A stretch of 27,107 bases of DNA from Clostridia bacterium (GCA_017560225.1 JAFYOJ010000094.1:1-27107), one strand, 5' to 3'. Counted from the stretch's first letter, positions 20,065 through 26,425 are shown. Made by a program: numbers and translations. The notes: generated from the letters alone by a model not told the origin.

Positions 20065-20252
20065 CAACTCAAAGGAGATACGAGTCGTTTTTTGATTCGT
20101 ATCTCTGTTTTTTATAATTCACATAGTCCATAGGCTATATCATAGTCTGTGGATTATTTTCATTTTAACTGATATTTGATACAATAATACCAACCATAAA
20201 TATATTCATCTTATCGTGATAAAATAATTAGGTAGAAGGAGGATGATAGAAT

Positions 20253-21092
20253 ATGAGAAAAATAACAACCGAAACAATAAAATCATTCAATGACTATCTG
20301 ATTAATGAGGAAAAGGCGGCGGCAACCGTCAACAAATATTTGCACGACGTTGGTGATTTTCAAATATGGCTTGGTGAGCAGGAGTTGTGTAAAACGGCGG
20401 TTCTTGCGTATAAATCATACCTTTGCGAGCATTATGCCCCTGCAAGTGTCAATGCCGCGCTCTCATCGCTCAATAGCTTTTTCAATTTTATGGAGTGGTA
20501 TGATTTGAGAGTAAAGAATCTGAAAATTCAAAAACAGATATTTGCTTCAATCGATAAGGAATTGACCAAGGCTGAGTATGACCGTCTTTTACAAGCTGCA
20601 AAGCAAAAGAAAAACGAGCGCTTGTATCTCTTAATGCAGACGATATGCTCCACGGGAATCCGTGTGTCCGAAGTGCGCTACGTTACTGTCGAGGCAGTGG
20701 TGCGCGGTATTGCCGAGATCAACTGCAAGGGCAAGCGCAGACAAGTATTTTTACCGAAGCAGCTTTGTCAGATATTAAAGCAGTATATTAAGGAGCAAAA
20801 AATAAAAAGCGGAGCCGTGTTTGTAACGAAGAACGGCAATCCGCTTGATAGATCGAATATTTGGAGTGATATGAAAAAGCTATGTAAGGCGGCGAATGTG
20901 TCGGAGAAGAAAGTCTTTCCCCACAATCTCCGTCACCTTTTCGCGCGCACTTATTACAGCTTACAAAAGGATATCGTGCGCTTGGCTGACATCCTCGGTC
21001 ATAGCAGCGTGAATACAACGAGAATTTATACAATGGAAACGGGCGAGATACACCGAAGACAGATTCAGAAATTGGGACTTCTACGGTGTTAA
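20253..21092 (+). CDS. Small tyrosine recombinase (XerC/D-like, 279 aa), candidate DNA invertase for the adjacent switch
   Basis: It has an N-terminal SAM-like core-binding domain. Catalytic signatures are GIRVSEV (Arg I), HNLRHLF (H-x-x-R) and GHSSVNTTRIYT (Tyr nucleophile). It has no phage-integrase arm-binding extension and ends 18 nt before the inverted repeat. Confidence 0.85.
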   Translation: MRKITTETIKSFNDYLINEEKAAATVNKYLHDVGDFQIWLGEQELCKTAVLAYKSYLCEHYAPASVNAALSSLNSFFNFMEWYDLRVKNLKIQKQIFASIDKELTKAEYDRLLQAAKQKKNERLYLLMQTICSTGIRVSEVRYVTVEAVVRGIAEINCKGKRRQVFLPKQLCQILKQYIKEQKIKSGAVFVTKNGNPLDRSNIWSDMKKLCKAANVSEKKVFPHNLRHLFARTYYSLQKDIVRLADILGHSSVNTTRIYTMETGEIHRRQIQKLGLLRC

Positions 21093-21110
21093 CTACCGAT
21101 AAAAAGAAAC

Positions 21111-21137
21111 CTACCACATAATTCTCGTTATGTAGTA
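21111..21137. repeat. Left arm of a perfect 27-bp inverted repeat (CTACCACATAATTCTCGTTATGTAGTA)
   Basis: It is the exact reverse complement of 21332..21358, checked base by base. Confidence 0.9.
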
Positions 21138-21279
21138 ATATAAAGTAAAAAAATATAAGCGCAATACAATCGTATTACGCCCAACAAGACCAATGAAAAA
21201 ATCTAATTTTCATTGGTCTAATTTCCATGCCTATTTTGTAAATTTTTATCTAAAAATCTCATATTGTTGCCTTTTTGGA

Positions 21280-21308
21280 TTGACAAAAGGCTTTGAAAGT
21301 GATATAAT
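21280..21308 (+). promoter_or_regulatory. Consensus sigma-70 promoter with an extended -10 element inside the invertible segment, currently directed into the SPFH operon
   Basis: It is TTGACA-17nt-TATAAT, preceded by TG (TGATATAAT). Confidence 0.65.
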
Positions 21309-21331
21309 ATTTTATGTATAAATATTTCATC

Positions 21332-21358
21332 TACTACATAACGAGAATTATGTGGTAG
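21332..21358. repeat. Right arm of a perfect 27-bp inverted repeat (TACTACATAACGAGAATTATGTGGTAG)
   Basis: It is the exact reverse complement of 21111..21137. It lies in the 5' UTR, 21 nt before the operon RBS. Confidence 0.9.
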
Positions 21359-21379
21359 AAATAAAAAAGGAGTCGCGCT

Positions 21380-22678
21380 ATGGCAATTGTAGAAGTAATA
21401 CAATACAACGGCAATCCTGATGTCTTCGCTTGGAAATATCCCAATAACGAGCTCGGCACCTGGACACAGTTAATTGTAAACGAATCACAAGAAGCAATCT
21501 TAGTTAAAGGCGGACAGGTATGCGATATATTCCAAGCCGGCCGCCACACGCTGAGTACCAATAATATTCCGATACTTAGCAAACTCGTTAATATTCCTTT
21601 CGGTGGACGTTCACCGTTTACTGCGGAAGTTTGGTATATTAACAAGGTCTTTTCTTTGGACGTAAAGTGGGGTACCTCCACTCCAATTCAACTTCAAGAC
21701 CCCAAGTATAAGGTTTTTGTACCTGTCAGAGCTTTTGGACAATTTGGTATCCAAATTGAGGATTCTAAGAAATTCTTACTGAAGCTTGTAGGCACATTGC
21801 CCACATTTGACAAGGCAACTCTTCTTAAATTCTTTAGAGGCGTCTATTTAACAAAAGCTAAGGATGCAATTTCGTCTTACTTGGTACATAAAAACATCAG
21901 CATCTTAGAAATCAACGCATATCTTGACGAAATATCAACATTCCTTCAAGAAAAGATGGCACCGACGTTCTCGGATTATGGAATCAAGCTTGTATCCTTT
22001 TTCGTTAATGACATCAATGTCCCCGAGGATGACAAAGCAGTTGTTCAGCTCAAAAATGCCCTTGCCAAGAGAGCTGAAATGGATATTGTTGGTTACAGTT
22101 ATCAGCAAGAGCGTTCTTTCGATACATTGGAGGGCGCTGCCAACAATCCGAATTCTATGTCTGGTGGCTTGATGGGTGCTGGCATCGGTCTTGGAATGGG
22201 CGTAGGTATGGGAGGAGCTATTGGTAATCAGTTTGGTGGAATCGCGCAATCGATCAATACCAACGATACCAAAGAATGTCCTAATTGCAAAGGCAGAATT
22301 GGCACAAACGAAAGATTTTGCCATCTCTGCGGTTGCGATACTTCCGCTCCCAAAAAGGAATCTAAGAAAGAATCTGCAATCAAATGCTCAAATTGTGGAG
22401 CCGCTATGACCGAAAACACAAAATTCTGTCCTGAGTGCGGAAATCGTTACAATCCATGTAGCAATTGTAAAGCAGATATTCCCGACGGTGCAAAAGTATG
22501 TCCGGAGTGTGGAACGAAGGTTCCTGTGCCGTGTCCGAAGTGCGGTCACTTATTAACGGGAAATAGCAAGTTCTGCCCCGAATGTGGTCATTCTCTCATT
22601 AGAAAATGCTCGGGTTGTGGAAAAGAAATAGAGGGCTCTACTAAGTTCTGCCCCGAGTGCGGAACACCTGTTAATTAA
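21380..22678 (+). CDS. SPFH/band-7-domain protein (COG4260/YdjI-like) with a Gly/Met-rich linker and ~5 tandem C-terminal zinc-ribbon repeats
   Basis: The N-terminal region is IVNESQEAILVKGGQ ... TAEVWYINK, as in YdjI-like SPFH proteins. The linker is GGLMGAGIGLGMGVGMGGAIGNQFGG. Repeated CPNC/CSNC/CSNC/CPKC/CSGC ... KFCPECG units follow. AAGGAG lies 7 nt before ATG. Confidence 0.8.
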   Translation: MAIVEVIQYNGNPDVFAWKYPNNELGTWTQLIVNESQEAILVKGGQVCDIFQAGRHTLSTNNIPILSKLVNIPFGGRSPFTAEVWYINKVFSLDVKWGTSTPIQLQDPKYKVFVPVRAFGQFGIQIEDSKKFLLKLVGTLPTFDKATLLKFFRGVYLTKAKDAISSYLVHKNISILEINAYLDEISTFLQEKMAPTFSDYGIKLVSFFVNDINVPEDDKAVVQLKNALAKRAEMDIVGYSYQQERSFDTLEGAANNPNSMSGGLMGAGIGLGMGVGMGGAIGNQFGGIAQSINTNDTKECPNCKGRIGTNERFCHLCGCDTSAPKKESKKESAIKCSNCGAAMTENTKFCPECGNRYNPCSNCKADIPDGAKVCPECGTKVPVPCPKCGHLLTGNSKFCPECGHSLIRKCSGCGKEIEGSTKFCPECGTPVN

Positions 22679-22691
22679 GGAGGGCTAATCT

Positions 22692-23363
22692 ATGAAAAAC
22701 GCAAAACTTACTACGCTTATTTGCGGATTGATCTCCATAGCAGCAACTGTAATATTCTATTTGCTCACCTTTGACAACATCTTTACTATTCCAATGAGAT
22801 GGGTGTCACTGATGCTTTTGCTTGTTGCAGAAGTGATTGGAACATTGAAAGCAATATTTGTTAATAAAAACATTATTACACAAGCAAGTATTTTTACAAG
22901 TGTTGCCCACCTTGTAGCGGTATTGGTCATATCAATTGTTTTCGTTAATTTCTTCCCCCTCGCAATTAGAACATATATCCTCTTAAATATCTTGTTGTTA
23001 TGTGCGATGGCAGCGGCTGATTTGTTCGTATCTCATTTTGGAAAAAACATTTCTGCAAGCAACAAAAAATTGGCACAAAGCCAGTCTGTCATGGATGCGT
23101 GCTATGCCAAAGCTCAGGGACTTGTAGTTGTATACGGACAAAGTGAGTACAAAAAAGATTTGATTGAGATTTCTGAACTTATTAAGTATTCGGATAATAG
23201 CGAGCTTACAGACGATGAGCCTGCTATCATGGGAAAACTCGGAGAGTTAGAATCTCAACTAAAGGAAAACGGCGAGAACATTTCCGCTTTGATTTCCGAA
23301 ATCAAAAATTTAATTAACTTGCGCACCATAAAAATGAAAAGCATAAAGAGAGGCGGCTATTAA
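22692..23363 (+). CDS. Membrane protein (4 predicted TM segments) with a C-terminal coiled-coil tail
   Basis: Hydrophobic segments in the first ~120 aa are followed by a charged helical region. AAGGAGG lies before ATG. It is tightly spaced in the operon. Confidence 0.6.
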   Translation: MKNAKLTTLICGLISIAATVIFYLLTFDNIFTIPMRWVSLMLLLVAEVIGTLKAIFVNKNIITQASIFTSVAHLVAVLVISIVFVNFFPLAIRTYILLNILLLCAMAAADLFVSHFGKNISASNKKLAQSQSVMDACYAKAQGLVVVYGQSEYKKDLIEISELIKYSDNSELTDDEPAIMGKLGELESQLKENGENISALISEIKNLINLRTIKMKSIKRGGY

Positions 23364-23386
23364 GCCGCAAATGGAGGTTAGATAGA

Positions 23387-24031
23387 ATGAGTAATAAAAA
23401 TAACAACTTGGGCTGTTTATATTCTTGGCCCGTAATTATCATCGCACTGATTTGCTTTTGGCCTGTAGGTTTGTTTTTGATCATCAAAAGAGCTTCTGTT
23501 GACAAAAAGACAGCAATGGCTTCAGGTAAGCTCATTAAAGGTCTCGGCATTGCCTCTTGTTGTATGGCTGCCCTTGGTTTCTTAGTGTGCCTAAGTGACG
23601 GATTTGATGGCACTGATGTAGGAATGATTATTTTCTTTGCTGCTGCGGGTGCCGCTCTTCTTTACTTGGCAAACAAAATTAAAAAGGATGCGGATAGTGT
23701 AAAACTGTACCTTAACATCATTGTAAACGGTGGCGAAAGACAACTTGACTCTGTTGCTGCGGCAACTGGCAAGCAGTATGACGTTGTCAAAAAGGATGTT
23801 CAAAAGATGATTGATAAGGGCTTCTTAAAGAACGCCTATATCAATGAAAACACAAGAGAGGTTGTACTTCCTTCCGCAGCTCCTGCCAACGTGAATGTGG
23901 CTCAGCCCACAGGTGGAACAGCTCCTGCGGCGGCACAGACGAGAGTTATTGCTTGCCCTTGTTGCGGAGCTAACAATACCATATCCGGCGATATTGGTGA
24001 GTGCGAGTATTGTGGAACACCTTTGAAGTAA
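23387..24031 (+). CDS. Membrane protein with a C-terminal zinc ribbon
   Basis: Three hydrophobic segments and then a soluble region ending CPCCGANNTISGDIGECEYCG. GGAGG lies 9 nt before ATG. Confidence 0.6.
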   Translation: MSNKNNNLGCLYSWPVIIIALICFWPVGLFLIIKRASVDKKTAMASGKLIKGLGIASCCMAALGFLVCLSDGFDGTDVGMIIFFAAAGAALLYLANKIKKDADSVKLYLNIIVNGGERQLDSVAAATGKQYDVVKKDVQKMIDKGFLKNAYINENTREVVLPSAAPANVNVAQPTGGTAPAAAQTRVIACPCCGANNTISGDIGECEYCGTPLK

Positions 24032-24046
24032 TTACAAAATTTAATT

Positions 24047-24685
24047 ATGGAAAAAAGATGTTCTAATTGTAACGGATCACTTAAATTATCCGCCGATAAA
24101 ACCAAGTGGATATGTGACTTTTGTGAGTCTGAATTTTGGATTGAAGAAGGTACCAAACCAAATTTTGTTGCTGAGCAAAGCGCTTCGGCTACTTACTACA
24201 TTGGTACGGTAAAAGTATCAAAGGAATCAATTCAAAAAATAGATACTTATATGGCAACAAACCAAAAGCTTAATGCCATAAAATTTGTACGAGAAATAAG
24301 TGGTTTGGGACTTGCCGATGCAAAAACATGGGTTGAAAGTTATAAAAACTATAATCTCGAAGAGCCGCAAAAGTTTGAACCCGCAACGTTTTCTACACAA
24401 CAAACTGCCAACAAATCCGGTTGTTATGTTGCGACTTGCGTCTACGGTTCCTATGATTGTCCACAGGTTTGGACGCTTCGTCGTTATCGCGACGATACTC
24501 TCGGTTCCACTTGGTACGGTAGACTGTTTATTCGTACATACTATGCGATCAGCCCTACTCTCGTAAAGTGGTTTGGCAAAACGAATTGGTTCAAGAAACT
24601 TTGGAAGGGTAAACTTGATCGTATGGTTGCAAAGCTCCAATCTAATGGTGTAGAAGATACTCCCTACGAAGATAAGAACTGGTAA
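24047..24685 (+). CDS. Protein with an N-terminal zinc ribbon, a ribosomal L7/L12 C-terminal-domain-like motif and a Cys-rich C-terminal module
   Basis: CSNCNG ... CDFCES is the zinc ribbon. KLNAIKFVREISGLGLADAKTWVES parallels the L7/L12 block K-V-A-V-I-K-A-V-R-x-x-T-G-L-G-L-K-E-A-K-D-L-V-E-S. The C-terminus is CYVATCVYGSYDCPQVWTLRRYRD ... YYAISP. Confidence 0.6.
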   Translation: MEKRCSNCNGSLKLSADKTKWICDFCESEFWIEEGTKPNFVAEQSASATYYIGTVKVSKESIQKIDTYMATNQKLNAIKFVREISGLGLADAKTWVESYKNYNLEEPQKFEPATFSTQQTANKSGCYVATCVYGSYDCPQVWTLRRYRDDTLGSTWYGRLFIRTYYAISPTLVKWFGKTNWFKKLWKGKLDRMVAKLQSNGVEDTPYEDKNW

Positions 24686-24698
24686 TAGAGATAAAAAC

Positions 24699-24738
24699 AA
24701 AAGCCAAGTGGTATAAAATCATACCATTTGGCTTTTTG
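24699..24738 (+). terminator. Rho-independent terminator after the four-gene operon
   Basis: It is GCCAAGTGGTAT-AAAATC-ATACCATTTGGC (12-bp stem with one G-U pair) followed by TTTTT. Confidence 0.65.
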
Positions 24739-24815: not shown

Positions 24816-24844
24816 TTGACAACGGAAAAATTATGTGATATAAT
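24816..24844 (+). promoter_or_regulatory. Sigma-70 promoter with an extended -10 element for the LexA-like module
   Basis: It is TTGACA-17nt-TATAAT, preceded by TG (TGATATAAT). Confidence 0.55.
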
Positions 24845-24857
24845 AACTCTACATACT

Positions 24858-24872
24858 GAAACATTATGTTTC
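24858..24872. promoter_or_regulatory. Palindromic candidate operator GAAACATTATGTTTC between the promoter and the RBS
   Basis: It has perfect 7-bp arms with a 1-nt spacer. It is related to the Firmicute LexA (Cheo) box core GAAC-N4-GTTC but with GAAAC/GTTTC arms. Confidence 0.4.
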
Positions 24873-24883
24873 TCGGAGGCGTT

Positions 24884-25498
24884 ATGCGAAGACAAGATGA
24901 ATCGAAAAAGAGTGTGATACTTGATTTTATCGACGAGTATTACAATGAATATAACGAGATCCCTGCCGTGAGAACTATTGCGGAGGGCACGGGAATTGCT
25001 TTGGCAACCGTGCATCGCTATCTGCTCTCGCTCAAAGAAAGCGGCGAGCTTGAATACAACGGTCGCAAGTCGATCTCTACCAAGCGTATCGATTTGGAAT
25101 CGCGTCACACTTCTGCTCCCGTTCTCGGTTACGTCCGTTGCGGCGAAGGAGAAGAAGAAACAGAGGAAGTCATCGAGTATATCCGACTCCCCGAAAGTTT
25201 AGTCGGTACGGGCGAGTTTTTCGTGCTGATCGCCAAGGGTGATTCGATGATCGACGCCGGAGTGAATGAAGGTGACTACGTTGTTATCCGCAAGCAAAAC
25301 ACCGCAAACGACGGAGATTACGTTGTGGCTCTCTATGAAGGGCTGAACAATCTCAAGGAGCTTGTTGTCGATAACGGAAGATATATTCTTCGTTCTTGTA
25401 ACGAAGATAAGGACACCTATCCCGACATTTATCCGAGAGATCTGAAGATACAAGGAGTTGCGGTCTGCGTAATGCACCGCTTGAAGAGAAGGAGGTAG
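24884..25498 (+). CDS. LexA-like transcriptional repressor with an S24 peptidase domain
   Basis: The N-terminus is a winged helix (IPAVRTIAEGTGIALATVHRYL). The C-terminal S24 signature is AKGDSMIDAGVNEGDYVVIRKQ (Ser-Lys dyad context). The start was set at the second ATG, with GGAGG 4 nt upstream. Confidence 0.75.
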   Translation: MRRQDESKKSVILDFIDEYYNEYNEIPAVRTIAEGTGIALATVHRYLLSLKESGELEYNGRKSISTKRIDLESRHTSAPVLGYVRCGEGEEETEEVIEYIRLPESLVGTGEFFVLIAKGDSMIDAGVNEGDYVVIRKQNTANDGDYVVALYEGLNNLKELVVDNGRYILRSCNEDKDTYPDIYPRDLKIQGVAVCVMHRLKRRR

Positions 25499-25501
25499 TC
25501 G

Positions 25502-26047
25502 ATGCCCCAAAAGAAATACGATCTCCGAAATCAATATGAAAGCCCTGTGCATCGTTATAACAAAGAAAACGAACGCATAGCTCACCTTGAAGCTGTTCTC
25601 TGCGCACACCAAAAGCAAGCAGAGATGCCAAAGAAAGTTAAACTTCCTACGTTTGATTGCCCCGCTTGTCATGCGAAGAACATTATGTTTGCCGGCGACG
25701 CGGTGACAAAGAACGAAACAATATTGTCTTTGCTTGAAGAAAACGGAGTTGCAGACTACGTTATCATTTGCCCCAAATGTAAGCAATACATTGGTGTCCG
25801 TCGCCACGTCGGAACACAAGTTATTCGCCGTTGCTTCCGCACCATCGGCGGAACTCCGTTTGAGTATGTGTACGTGTTTAATCATAGAATTACCAGAACA
25901 TATCAAGACGGTGAAATCCCTATGGGGACTCGAATCTTTTACGGTGAGATCAATAATGAAATCGGTGAAGCACAGGAAGAACATCCGACCGTGCAAAGCA
26001 TTTGGCTGCCGAACCAACAATATTCGAAAGTAAACAGCACTCAATAA
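25502..26047 (+). CDS. Hypothetical zinc-ribbon protein co-transcribed with the LexA-like repressor
   Basis: The Cys pairs are CPACHAKN ... CPKCKQY. GGAGG lies before ATG, and there is a 3-nt gap after the repressor stop. Confidence 0.5.
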   Translation: MPQKKYDLRNQYESPVHRYNKENERIAHLEAVLCAHQKQAEMPKKVKLPTFDCPACHAKNIMFAGDAVTKNETILSLLEENGVADYVIICPKCKQYIGVRRHVGTQVIRRCFRTIGGTPFEYVYVFNHRITRTYQDGEIPMGTRIFYGEINNEIGEAQEEHPTVQSIWLPNQQYSKVNSTQ

Positions 26048-26425
26048 TACATATCGCTTTTCAAAATTCACAATTAAATAAAACATATTTTTAGTGATCC
26101 ATCCTCCCATCAGAGAATATGGGAACTTAAGGGTAGGTATCAGTTACATATCATCACACGCATAATCAGAATGCAAATTCTATTATGTTTTGTTGTGGCG
26201 GTTGTAAGTGATACCTGCCCTTTTTTGCGCTTTCAATGTCGAAATTTATCGAAGGAAAGGAGAACGAAAATGAAATTTACTTCAAAATAATACGGACTTG
26301 TAGTCCGTCTACTTTTCTTGACAAGCACTGCATTTGTGGACACAAAATGCGAAGGTGGGGAGAACCCCAGACCCCCGAACCAAAAAAATTATAATAAAAA
26401 TTTATAGCAAAGGAGTAAAAGCAAA

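Follow-up and report, generated by a model that had tools for sequence, protein, structure and literature searches.

Introduction

Invertible promoters are well characterised in Escherichia coli and Bacteroides; those of gut Clostridia have so far been recorded chiefly in catalogues compiled by read mapping. The fimS switch of E. coli, which is served by FimB and FimE, consists of an invertible promoter segment of about 200-300 bp bounded by inverted repeats, has a tyrosine recombinase gene immediately upstream and is biased towards the OFF state. The same traits are found in the locus analyzed in this work, which resides on a stretch of 27,107 nucleotides from an uncultured Clostridia bacterium of the gut (GCA_017560225.1, JAFYOJ010000094.1:1-27107; hereafter the window) and comprises a 194-bp promoter segment between two inverted repeats (21111-21358), a gene for a small tyrosine recombinase on one side and, on the other, a four-gene operon beginning with an SPFH gene, which we refer to as the cargo. 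The segment is a genuine on/off switch that is found both ways round in nature, and it belongs to an already known general kind, the inverton of the fimS or Bacteroides type.

The fimS system differs from the present locus in its enzymes, which are of the FimB/FimE type and two in number, whereas a single Xer-like recombinase is encoded here, and in its repeats, which measure 9 bp plus flanking half-sites, whereas full core sites of 26-27 bp with a 10-6-10 arrangement are present here. Furthermore, accessory sites for IHF or Lrp were not identified at this locus, and its core contains a predicted insulating terminator. The invertible promoters of Bacteroides (Tsr-type) and the PhaseFinder invertons, the latter reportedly described by Jiang and colleagues in 2019, resemble the present case in their occurrence in the gut, in the control of surface, capsule and restriction-modification functions and in a tyrosine recombinase that is often encoded nearby; phylum, promoter (-7/-33 as opposed to the sigma-70 consensus here), inverted-repeat motifs and recombinase clade are different. 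Mpi, the global invertase of Bacteroides, is a serine recombinase. The RecV-dependent switches of Clostridioides difficile (cwpV, flgB, cmrRST) share with our locus the firmicute host, the tyrosine recombinase and short promoter or regulatory segments in the 5' leader. On the other hand, RecV is a single enzyme that serves several distant sites in trans, their inverted repeats being about 21 bp long, whereas each switch of the type studied here has its own adjacent recombinase. An initial annotation of the window had likened its layout to all three systems: for function of the fimS and Bacteroides type the comparison holds, the likeness to RecV with its distant sites is loose, and the enzyme is not FimB/E-like.

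At the level of mechanism, the closest parallels are Xer/dif, Cre/lox and Flp/FRT, whose recombinases lack an arm-binding domain, as does the one encoded here, and whose core sites share the layout of half-site, centre and half-site, with inverted half-sites of about 10-11 bp round an asymmetric centre of 6-8 bp, which has to be alike in both partners and determines directionality. Xer/dif serves chromosome-dimer resolution, whereas two inverted sites at a distance of 194 bp result in inversion, and the recombinase described here misses all Xer equivalog cut-offs.

Invertons have already been reported from Clostridia. In a survey of a defined gut community (Microbiome, 2025), 32 of the 33 invertons of group 139 fall in Clostridia (17 strains), a tyrosine recombinase of invertase group 35 adjoins nearly every one of them, orientation shifts were seen at the read level in culture, and in an example from Clostridium sp. 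D5 the repeats measure about 26 nt and the core about 206 nt (PMC11892184). Positions 3525576-3525832 are given for an inverton of Clostridium sp. D5 and 1750639-1750893 for one of Intestinimonas butyriciproducens DSM 26588 (PMC11892184). Host and geometry agree with the family described below, which may belong to this group; the inverted-repeat motif is given in a figure only, and the searchable text of that paper does not treat site anatomy, spacer covariation, a terminator or SPFH cargo (PMC11892184). By name, no hCom2 strain was present among the homologues that we retrieved.

For the cargo, Bacillus subtilis offers a counterpart in YdjI, which possesses a low-complexity region together with a C-terminal zinc finger and is co-encoded with YdjG and YdjH (PMC8581546). 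As far as described there, the PspA-YdjGHI (SamGHI) system has in common with the operon of the window a soluble SPFH protein of the Band_7_1 type with zinc fingers and two co-encoded membrane proteins (PMC8581546). It differs by PspA and by control through sigma-W; the operon of the window lacks a pspA gene, has multiple zinc ribbons, encodes an additional zinc-ribbon/CFI-box protein and would be controlled by DNA inversion. In the searchable literature, SPFH, stomatin or flotillin proteins were nowhere connected with invertons or phase variation. The novelty claimed in the initial annotation goes too far as regards the switch: Clostridia invertons tied to tyrosine recombinases had been published before (PMC11892184), whereas the SPFH cargo is absent from the searchable literature.

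The promoter segment and its repeats

The elements on which the following argument is built are, in order along the window:

20253-21092, plus strand: Xer-like tyrosine recombinase of 279 amino acids, presumed invertase (Pfam Phage_integrase, 1.8e-30, and Phage_int_SAM_1)
21111-21137, no strand: proximal core recombination site (left repeat), CTACCACATAATTCTCGTTATGTAGTA, with a 10-6-10 internal palindrome; the alignment segment that marks the inversion ends here
21112-21121: outer half-site of the left repeat, TACCACATAA
21122-21127: centre of the left repeat, TTCTCG
21128-21137: inner half-site of the left repeat, TTATGTAGTA
21138-21331, no strand: invertible core of 194 nt, reverse-complemented at 194 of 194 positions in the related contigs L004 and L010 with collinear flanks
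21146-21219, minus strand: predicted tandem-hairpin intrinsic terminator (hairpins 21187-21219 and 21156-21183, U-run at about 21146-21155; terminator scan)
21280-21308, plus strand: consensus sigma-70-type promoter with extended -10 (TTGACA, 17-nt spacer, TGnTATAAT)
21332-21358, no strand: distal core recombination site (right repeat), in the 5' untranslated region (5' UTR) of the cargo
21332-21341: inner half-site of the right repeat, TACTACATAA
21342-21347: centre of the right repeat, CGAGAA
21348-21357: outer half-site of the right repeat, TTATGTGGTA

At 27 of 27 positions the two repeats are each other's reverse complement, and 194 nt separate them. Even when three mismatches are tolerated, no further copy exists within the 27-kb window, and 100 shuffled sequences did not contain a single match. 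A direct duplication does not flank the repeats, the left flank ending in ...AAAAAGAAAC and the right one beginning with AAATAAAAAA.... The core promoter (TTGACA at 21280-21285, TATAAT at 21303-21308 and the TG of the extended -10 at 21300-21301) attains the full score of 12/12, as do only two sites in the window; 0.025 would be expected per window and 1.8e-4 in the core. On the strand facing the cargo the best promoter score of the core is about 13.5 as compared to about 9.5 on the other strand. Since the -10 element ends 23 nt before the right repeat, the latter lies within the 5' UTR, where it is predicted to form a 12-bp hairpin in the RNA; transcription would be expected to start near 21315 in the ON state. 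Beyond it, nothing but a ribosome-binding site (AAGGAG, 21367-21372) precedes the ATG of the SPFH gene at 21380. As is characteristic of invertons, a short segment is bounded by inverted repeats and, by sequence, its internal predicted promoter would drive the adjacent gene in one orientation only. This anatomy had been largely anticipated in the initial annotation, which had described perfect 27-bp repeats round a 194-bp core, a TTGACA-17-TATAAT promoter with an upstream TG, the location of the right repeat in the 5' UTR of the downstream operon, the absence of a clear direct duplication around the repeats, and a 279-residue tyrosine recombinase without arm-binding domain that ends 18 nt upstream of the left repeat; all of this was borne out.

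Searches for other identities of the region were negative. Rfam returned chance-level matches only for the core (E about 0.7), megablast of positions 20200-22700 against phage and plasmid collections gave no match, and a tRNA scan for an att-type boundary detected no tRNA gene in the window.

Occurrence in both orientations

Ten metagenomic contigs (L001-L010) that encode exactly the SPFH protein of the window were surveyed for promoter orientation. The promoter is oriented as in the window in L003, L005 and L009 and inverted in L001, L002, L004, L006, L007 and L010, while L008 terminates inside an inverted core. In L004, the flanks agree with the window at every position for 200 nt on the left side and 300 nt on the right, and all 194 nt of the core are reverse-complemented; L009 (run SRR12529255), on the other hand, has the orientation of the window and matches it at 100% across 3,954 nt. 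The minus-strand high-scoring segment pairs reported by BLAST cover exactly positions 21111-21358, that is from repeat end to repeat end, and the switch is 99-100% identical also in those contigs whose flanking genes are only 90-96% identical. Orientation is scattered among near-identical variants, as exemplified by L001 and L005, which are opposite at 99.7% identity over 2.3 kb.

An even closer comparison is provided by a sister locus with a 98% identical recombinase, likewise a TTCTCG centre, and a paralogous operon, termed SPFH-B, as cargo. Three contigs from three samples, assembled under ERZ27316224, ERZ28593507 and ERZ27316157, represent a near-isogenic flip at this locus: L115 is ON, L116 and L114 are OFF. 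To the left of the switch they do not differ at all in 1,852 nt (100% identity, 0 substitutions); to the right, identity amounts to 99.7-99.8% along 4-5 kb. The switch itself measures 247 nt and matches at 100%, on the opposite strand. Two more same-locus inversions (L059/L069 and L045/L056) were found in a clade of recombinases with 57% identity to that of the window. The pair L060/L077, in which identical cores occur in both orientations and only the recombinase side is common, was not counted as a same-locus flip.

The same locus is thus present in both orientations with break-points at the repeats, as in other invertons. A search for related assemblies in the opposite orientation had been proposed in the initial annotation as a check, and contigs such as L004 and L116/L114 provide the answer. 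Its central reading, an invertible promoter switch with an adjacent recombinase and ON as sequenced, finds support in the two orientations together with the anatomy and covariation of the sites and a natural marker exchange. Flipping within one population is presumably frequent and reversible.

One contig stands apart. In L003 (positions 1-366) the left site of the SPFH-A switch, that is, the switch found in the window, is adjoined by a gene for an SPFH-B paralogue that is read towards the left. A promoter that toggles between two SPFH operons was considered and demoted to ambiguous, since the left flank corresponds to the SPFH-B cargo of another cassette with a TTCTCG centre. L003 is either a real recombinant between cassettes or a chimeric assembly formed via the 248-bp switch, which is longer than the assembler k of 141.

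Site anatomy and the adjacent recombinase

Each 27-bp arm is itself a palindrome in which two 10-bp half-sites surround an asymmetric 6-bp centre (TACCACATAA-TTCTCG-TTATGTAGTA). The family to which the switch belongs was surveyed on 80 metagenomic loci with recombinase homologues at 56-98% identity, 66 of which extend at least 500 nt downstream. In 62 of these 66 loci the recombinase gene is followed by an inverted site pair that encloses a strong promoter; the pair begins 6-75 nt past the recombinase stop codon and encloses 193-307 nt. The half-site positions ACATAA/TTATGT are invariant among 65 sites and the centre is variable, with 23 different versions, none of them palindromic. In every case (62/62 loci) the centre is exactly complementary between the partner sites. 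Such covariation is expected because the strand-exchange region must match between partners and has to be asymmetric for inversion to result, and the retention of matched centres in all 62 loci despite 23 variants argues for ongoing selection for recombination competence.

The position of the crossover is revealed by a natural marker exchange at the SPFH-B locus. Here, the innermost base of the sites is polymorphic and travels with the core, whereas the outer half-sites stay with the flanks, such that GTAGTA/CACTAC becomes GTAGTG/TACTAC in the flipped contigs. The crossover must therefore take place inside the sites. Variants of the outer half-site follow the recombinase clade, CCACATAA being present in the clades with 64-98% identity and CAACATAA in the 57% clade. 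When genome contigs were scanned for core sites, only two loci were found, both in metagenome-assembled genomes.

In sample ERZ28593507, an identical recombinase protein (P0011) is encoded beside a switch with the centre TTCTCG (L116) and beside one with the centre TTCCCA (L117); cargo and upstream genes of the two are different. This pattern suggests multiple orthogonal cassettes per community or genome. Different centres would render sites heterospecific, as with lox variants. The recombinase would accordingly seem not to read the centre, and differing centres would prevent cross-recombination between cassettes.

The open reading frame for the recombinase ends 18 nt before the left repeat. 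Its product consists of an N-terminal SAM-like core-binding domain and a catalytic domain and is devoid of an arm-binding domain. In an alignment with XerD (1a0p), residues R137, K159/161, H224, R227, H250 and Y259 coincide with its catalytic residues, such that the R-K-H-R-H-Y set is intact. XerA and XerD are the best NCBIfam matches, each below the cut-off (137 bits for XerA vs. a cut-off of 220, 132 vs. 330 for XerD, 120 vs. 335 for XerC). Membership in XerC, XerD, XerA or XerS is not indicated by the equivalog cut-offs, and the Xer proteins are the closest relatives. The models for FimB/FimE-type invertases, NF007370 and NF007371, yield 30.9 and 20.1 bits, far from their cut-offs of 221 and 222. 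Judged by these models, the recombinase is neither a FimB/E protein nor a true Xer protein. With its 10-6-10 sites and a recombinase lacking an arm-binding domain the system is dif-like, a likeness that concerns mechanism only. The adjacent recombinase is probably the catalyst of the inversion.

Mechanism and alternative explanations

We consider it about 85% probable that the locus constitutes a self-contained phase-variation cassette, in which the recombinase inverts the promoter core that controls the SPFH operon. The Xer-like recombinase would bind both half-sites of each 26-27-bp core site, synapse the two inverted sites and exchange strands in the asymmetric 6-bp centre (TTCTCG/CGAGAA), whereby the 194-bp core would be inverted. 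In the sequenced orientation, the core promoter would fire through the distal site into the four-gene operon, which has no promoter of its own, and the cargo would be ON. After inversion, the promoter would aim back at the recombinase gene, the tandem-hairpin terminator would face rightward and stop read-through from the recombinase gene, and the operon would be OFF.

Several points weigh against this interpretation. The contigs with opposite orientations stem from different samples, and the evidence consists of assembled contigs. Contig ends, which may serve as a read-free proxy for mixed orientations, are not specifically enriched at the switch, 12 of 80 falling within 350 nt downstream of the recombinase gene and 16 of 80 within 350 nt upstream. 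The case for the adjacent recombinase as the catalyst is made by adjacency and co-conservation, and the protein may have a second role in moving the TnpV/NikA element that surrounds it, because no second recombinase is apparent in the window. Hairpins that pass strict terminator thresholds were detected in only 26 of 55 cores, and the activities of promoter and terminator are consensus-based and thermodynamic predictions only.

The best surviving alternative accepts that inversion is real and holds that it is rare, the sites being leftover or att-like, the recombinase mainly integrating or mobilising the element and orientation being fixed per strain. Such a view would fit the finding of opposite orientations in different samples only, the lack of any other visible recombinase in an element that carries TnpV and NikA, and the existence of locked derivatives with promoter and solo site but without recombinase (L095-L104, see below). 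It is difficult to reconcile with flips between contigs that show 0 substitutions in a 1,852-nt flank and with their scatter among near-identical variants, with the match of centres kept in 62/62 loci with 23 centres, with the inability of inverted sites to mediate excision or integration, and with a published group of Clostridia invertons of the same geometry that flips within cultures (PMC11892184). We therefore regard rare inversion as unlikely.

We hold it for quite improbable that some other recombinase inverts the switch in trans and that the neighbouring gene has no part in it. Loci with a solo site and no recombinase do exist, and global trans-acting invertases such as RecV of C. difficile and Mpi of Bacteroides fragilis are well known; adjacency is nevertheless kept in 62/66 loci at 56-98% recombinase identity and in unrelated genomic contexts, the outer half-site variants track the recombinase clades, and the catalytic residues are intact.

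Assembly artefacts, either mis-joins at the repeat or chimeras between cassettes, would be an even less probable source of the opposite orientations. All assembler k values (141 and 119-127, and 31 for Logan) exceed the 27-nt repeat; real reads therefore carry each junction, and a mis-join at the repeat cannot explain the inverted forms. Both types of junction, with the promoter end and with the terminator end of the core, adjoin unique SPFH flank on real molecules, the inverted form recurs over many samples, several assemblers and three loci, and the marker exchange in the inner half-site is what true inversion predicts. What speaks for artefacts is the 99-100% identity of the 248-bp switch between cassettes over a length above k = 141, which makes chimeras within the core possible, L003 perhaps being one. 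The least credible option, also raised in the initial annotation, is that the repeats are the termini of a MITE-like transposon (miniature inverted-repeat transposable element) that by chance inserted between the recombinase gene and the SPFH operon: the size of about 250 bp and the perfect inverted repeats match this shape, but it is effectively refuted by the absence of a target-site duplication, the single pair of copies in the window, the constant position directly behind a homologous recombinase gene (56-98% identity), the core-site anatomy with covarying centre and the inversion in place between unchanged flanks, which transposition does not produce.

As a self-contained phase-variation cassette the locus offers a clean minimal model, composed of a single small recombinase of the Xer-like type, a pair of lox-like sites, a consensus promoter and an insulating terminator. 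Natural variation discloses its design rules, among them those for the half-sites, for a centre that may vary freely but has to match, and for the junction with the cargo, which bears the possibility of a compact genetic toggle for Firmicutes. Furthermore, the cassette suggests population-level on/off switching of a YdjI-like SPFH module and could provide a handle on a poorly understood function.

Predicted core terminator and orientation bias

The RNA of the minus-strand terminator in the core folds with -31.1 kcal/mol (z = -7.7), and none of 200 shuffled sequences was as stable. In the window the terminator points away from the promoter; after inversion it comes to lie on the plus strand between the recombinase gene and the cargo. 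There it would block read-through from the recombinase gene and make the OFF state tight. Across several clades, 26 of 55 distinct cores contain a terminator-like hairpin in promoter-distal position on the strand opposite to the promoter, and three of 55 contain one on the promoter strand. In all members of the family the promoter occupies one particular end of the core, its -10 element ending 27-50 nt from the site, and the mean promoter score amounts to 12.2 for the best strand vs. 9.4 for the other strand.

In the unbiased, recombinase-based survey, the promoter is directed towards the recombinase gene in 54 loci and towards the cargo in eight. The OFF form also predominates among the close relatives of the window, and the window therefore represents the minority ON state. 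Nothing separates the recombinase stop codon from the proximal site in cassettes of the window type, such that antisense transcripts of the recombinase gene would arise from the promoter once it is flipped. One may speculate that this antisense transcription damps switching out of the OFF state. In the 57% clade (L045-L092, e.g. L064:4850-4880), a GC-rich hairpin followed by a T-run, ATTCGCCGCCGATTTTGGCGGATTTTTT, was seen by eye on the minus strand in the gap between the recombinase stop codon and the proximal site. Its position is such that transcripts from the flipped promoter would be halted before they reach the recombinase gene; the clade of the window lacks this hairpin.

Distribution and derivatives of the cassette

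Among gut Clostridia, recombinase gene and switch are widely distributed as a unit and form a portable cassette. When cassettes with unlike cargo are compared, their similarity extends to the outer end of the distal site and is lost with the very next bases. The ATG of the cargo follows 21-50 nt past the distal site with only a ribosome-binding site in between, and the cargo therefore depends on the promoter of the switch. The cargo differs within the family and belongs to classes for which phase variation is classic: beside BspA-type leucine-rich-repeat surface proteins there are a type III restriction-modification methylase, a Wzz capsule protein, TetR regulators, a dockerin/fn3 protein, a GRAM/bPH protein and proteins without assigned function. 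An SPFH protein is the first cargo gene in 11 of the 62 surveyed loci, distributed over four recombinase clades.

In the clade with at least 94% recombinase identity, genes for TnpV, a DUF6809 protein, a helix-turn-helix (HTH) protein and the recombinase travel together whatever the cargo and the upstream neighbours. A NikA-like gene is located downstream in the window, and L115 carries a Mob_Pre relaxase. The mobile-element context postulated in the initial annotation thus gains partial support. Two contigs of about 50 kb from IMG/VR that are classed as viral (L093 and L094) encode recombinases of the 57% clade, with at least one full site pair (L094:3875/4137), and the cassette may ride on prophages, too.

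Derivatives of the cassette were encountered in three forms. In contigs L095-L104 from pig-gut Clostridia (e.g. L096:9900-10000), the same four-gene operon, with an SPFH protein from the same 90% cluster as that of the window, is inserted between spoIIIAH and rplU-rpmA, and there is no recombinase gene nearby. A promoter scoring 12/12, again with TG, has been kept, and so has, within the 5' UTR, one core site, CACCACATAATCGCAATTATGTTGTA, which has the TCGCAA centre and the orientation of the distal site in the L042 cassette. The operon apparently is a locked-ON descendant of an L042-type cassette. Contig L119 differs from L116 (1914-5625) by a plain 3.7-kb deletion that starts about 18 nt inside the core, removes most of the core, the distal site and the SPFH operon and joins the recombinase side to a DUF2971 gene; this loss of cargo is an ordinary deletion and not a result of site-specific recombination. 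In L071, L089 and L090, the proximal half-site and the centre remain about 50 nt past the recombinase stop codon (AACATAATCGATA) and are followed by unrelated DNA. The break occurs at the crossover centre, as if recombination with a secondary site had taken place.

Taken jointly, a portable platform that swaps its cargo, centres that act as orthogonality codes, decay to locked-ON chromosomal operons and SPFH proteins as a class subject to a trade-off form a broader picture that we consider doubtful as a whole. If it were true, cargo would be joined precisely at the outer end of the distal site, the fact that YdjI-like SPFH membrane modules were captured repeatedly would point to a strong trade-off in their expression, e.g. 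between phage susceptibility and protection against envelope stress, and SPFH membrane scaffolds would be a previously unrecognised phase-variable function class.

The cargo operon of the window

The genes under control of the switch and the hairpin that follows them are listed below, genes 2-4 (22692-24685) being described from hydropathy and translations:

21380-22678, plus strand: cargo gene 1, soluble SPFH protein (Pfam Band_7_1, 2.7e-48) with Gly-rich low-complexity linker and multiple C-terminal zinc ribbons
22692-23363, plus strand: cargo gene 2, protein with four transmembrane segments
23387-24031, plus strand: cargo gene 3, protein with three transmembrane segments and a C-terminal zinc ribbon
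24047-24685, plus strand: cargo gene 4, zinc-ribbon/CFI-box-CTERM protein (NCBIfam CFI_box_CTERM, 4.1e-20)
24699-24736, plus strand: terminator-like hairpin closing the four-gene operon (RNA fold -21.5 kcal/mol, z = -6.5)

Genes 2-4 follow one another closely and are conserved together with the SPFH gene, and the SPFH/zinc-ribbon operon named in the initial annotation is present downstream of the switch. The hairpin at its end was missed by the consensus terminator scan, its A/U tracts pairing into the stem. Hydropathy analysis revealed no transmembrane segment in the SPFH protein, which in its Band_7_1 domain, its low-complexity region and its C-terminal zinc finger corresponds to YdjI/SamI. 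Pfam and NCBIfam searches with the proteins of the operon did not uncover a PspA protein, and PADLOC assigned them to no defence system, with chance-level matches only (E >= 0.002).

Gene 4 combines an N-terminal zinc ribbon with a short L7/L12-C-like stretch and a CFI-box-CTERM region (NF041770, 4e-20), and we know of no description of this domain combination. Downstream of the operon, the second 12/12 promoter of the window (TTGACA-17-TATAAT with TG, 24816-24844) is located just upstream of a gene for a LexA-like S24 repressor (24866-25498), which comes after the cargo operon in several related contigs as well. An open reading frame on the minus strand (25199-26110, 303 amino acids) has no family match and overlaps the LexA-like gene by 300 nt; it is probably spurious, as gene calls for related contigs place plus-strand genes there. 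Among contigs L001-L010, the product of gene 3 is only 47-70% identical in some and 98-100% identical in others, with neighbours at 97-100%, which is suggestive of a mosaic or diversifying gene within an otherwise conserved operon.

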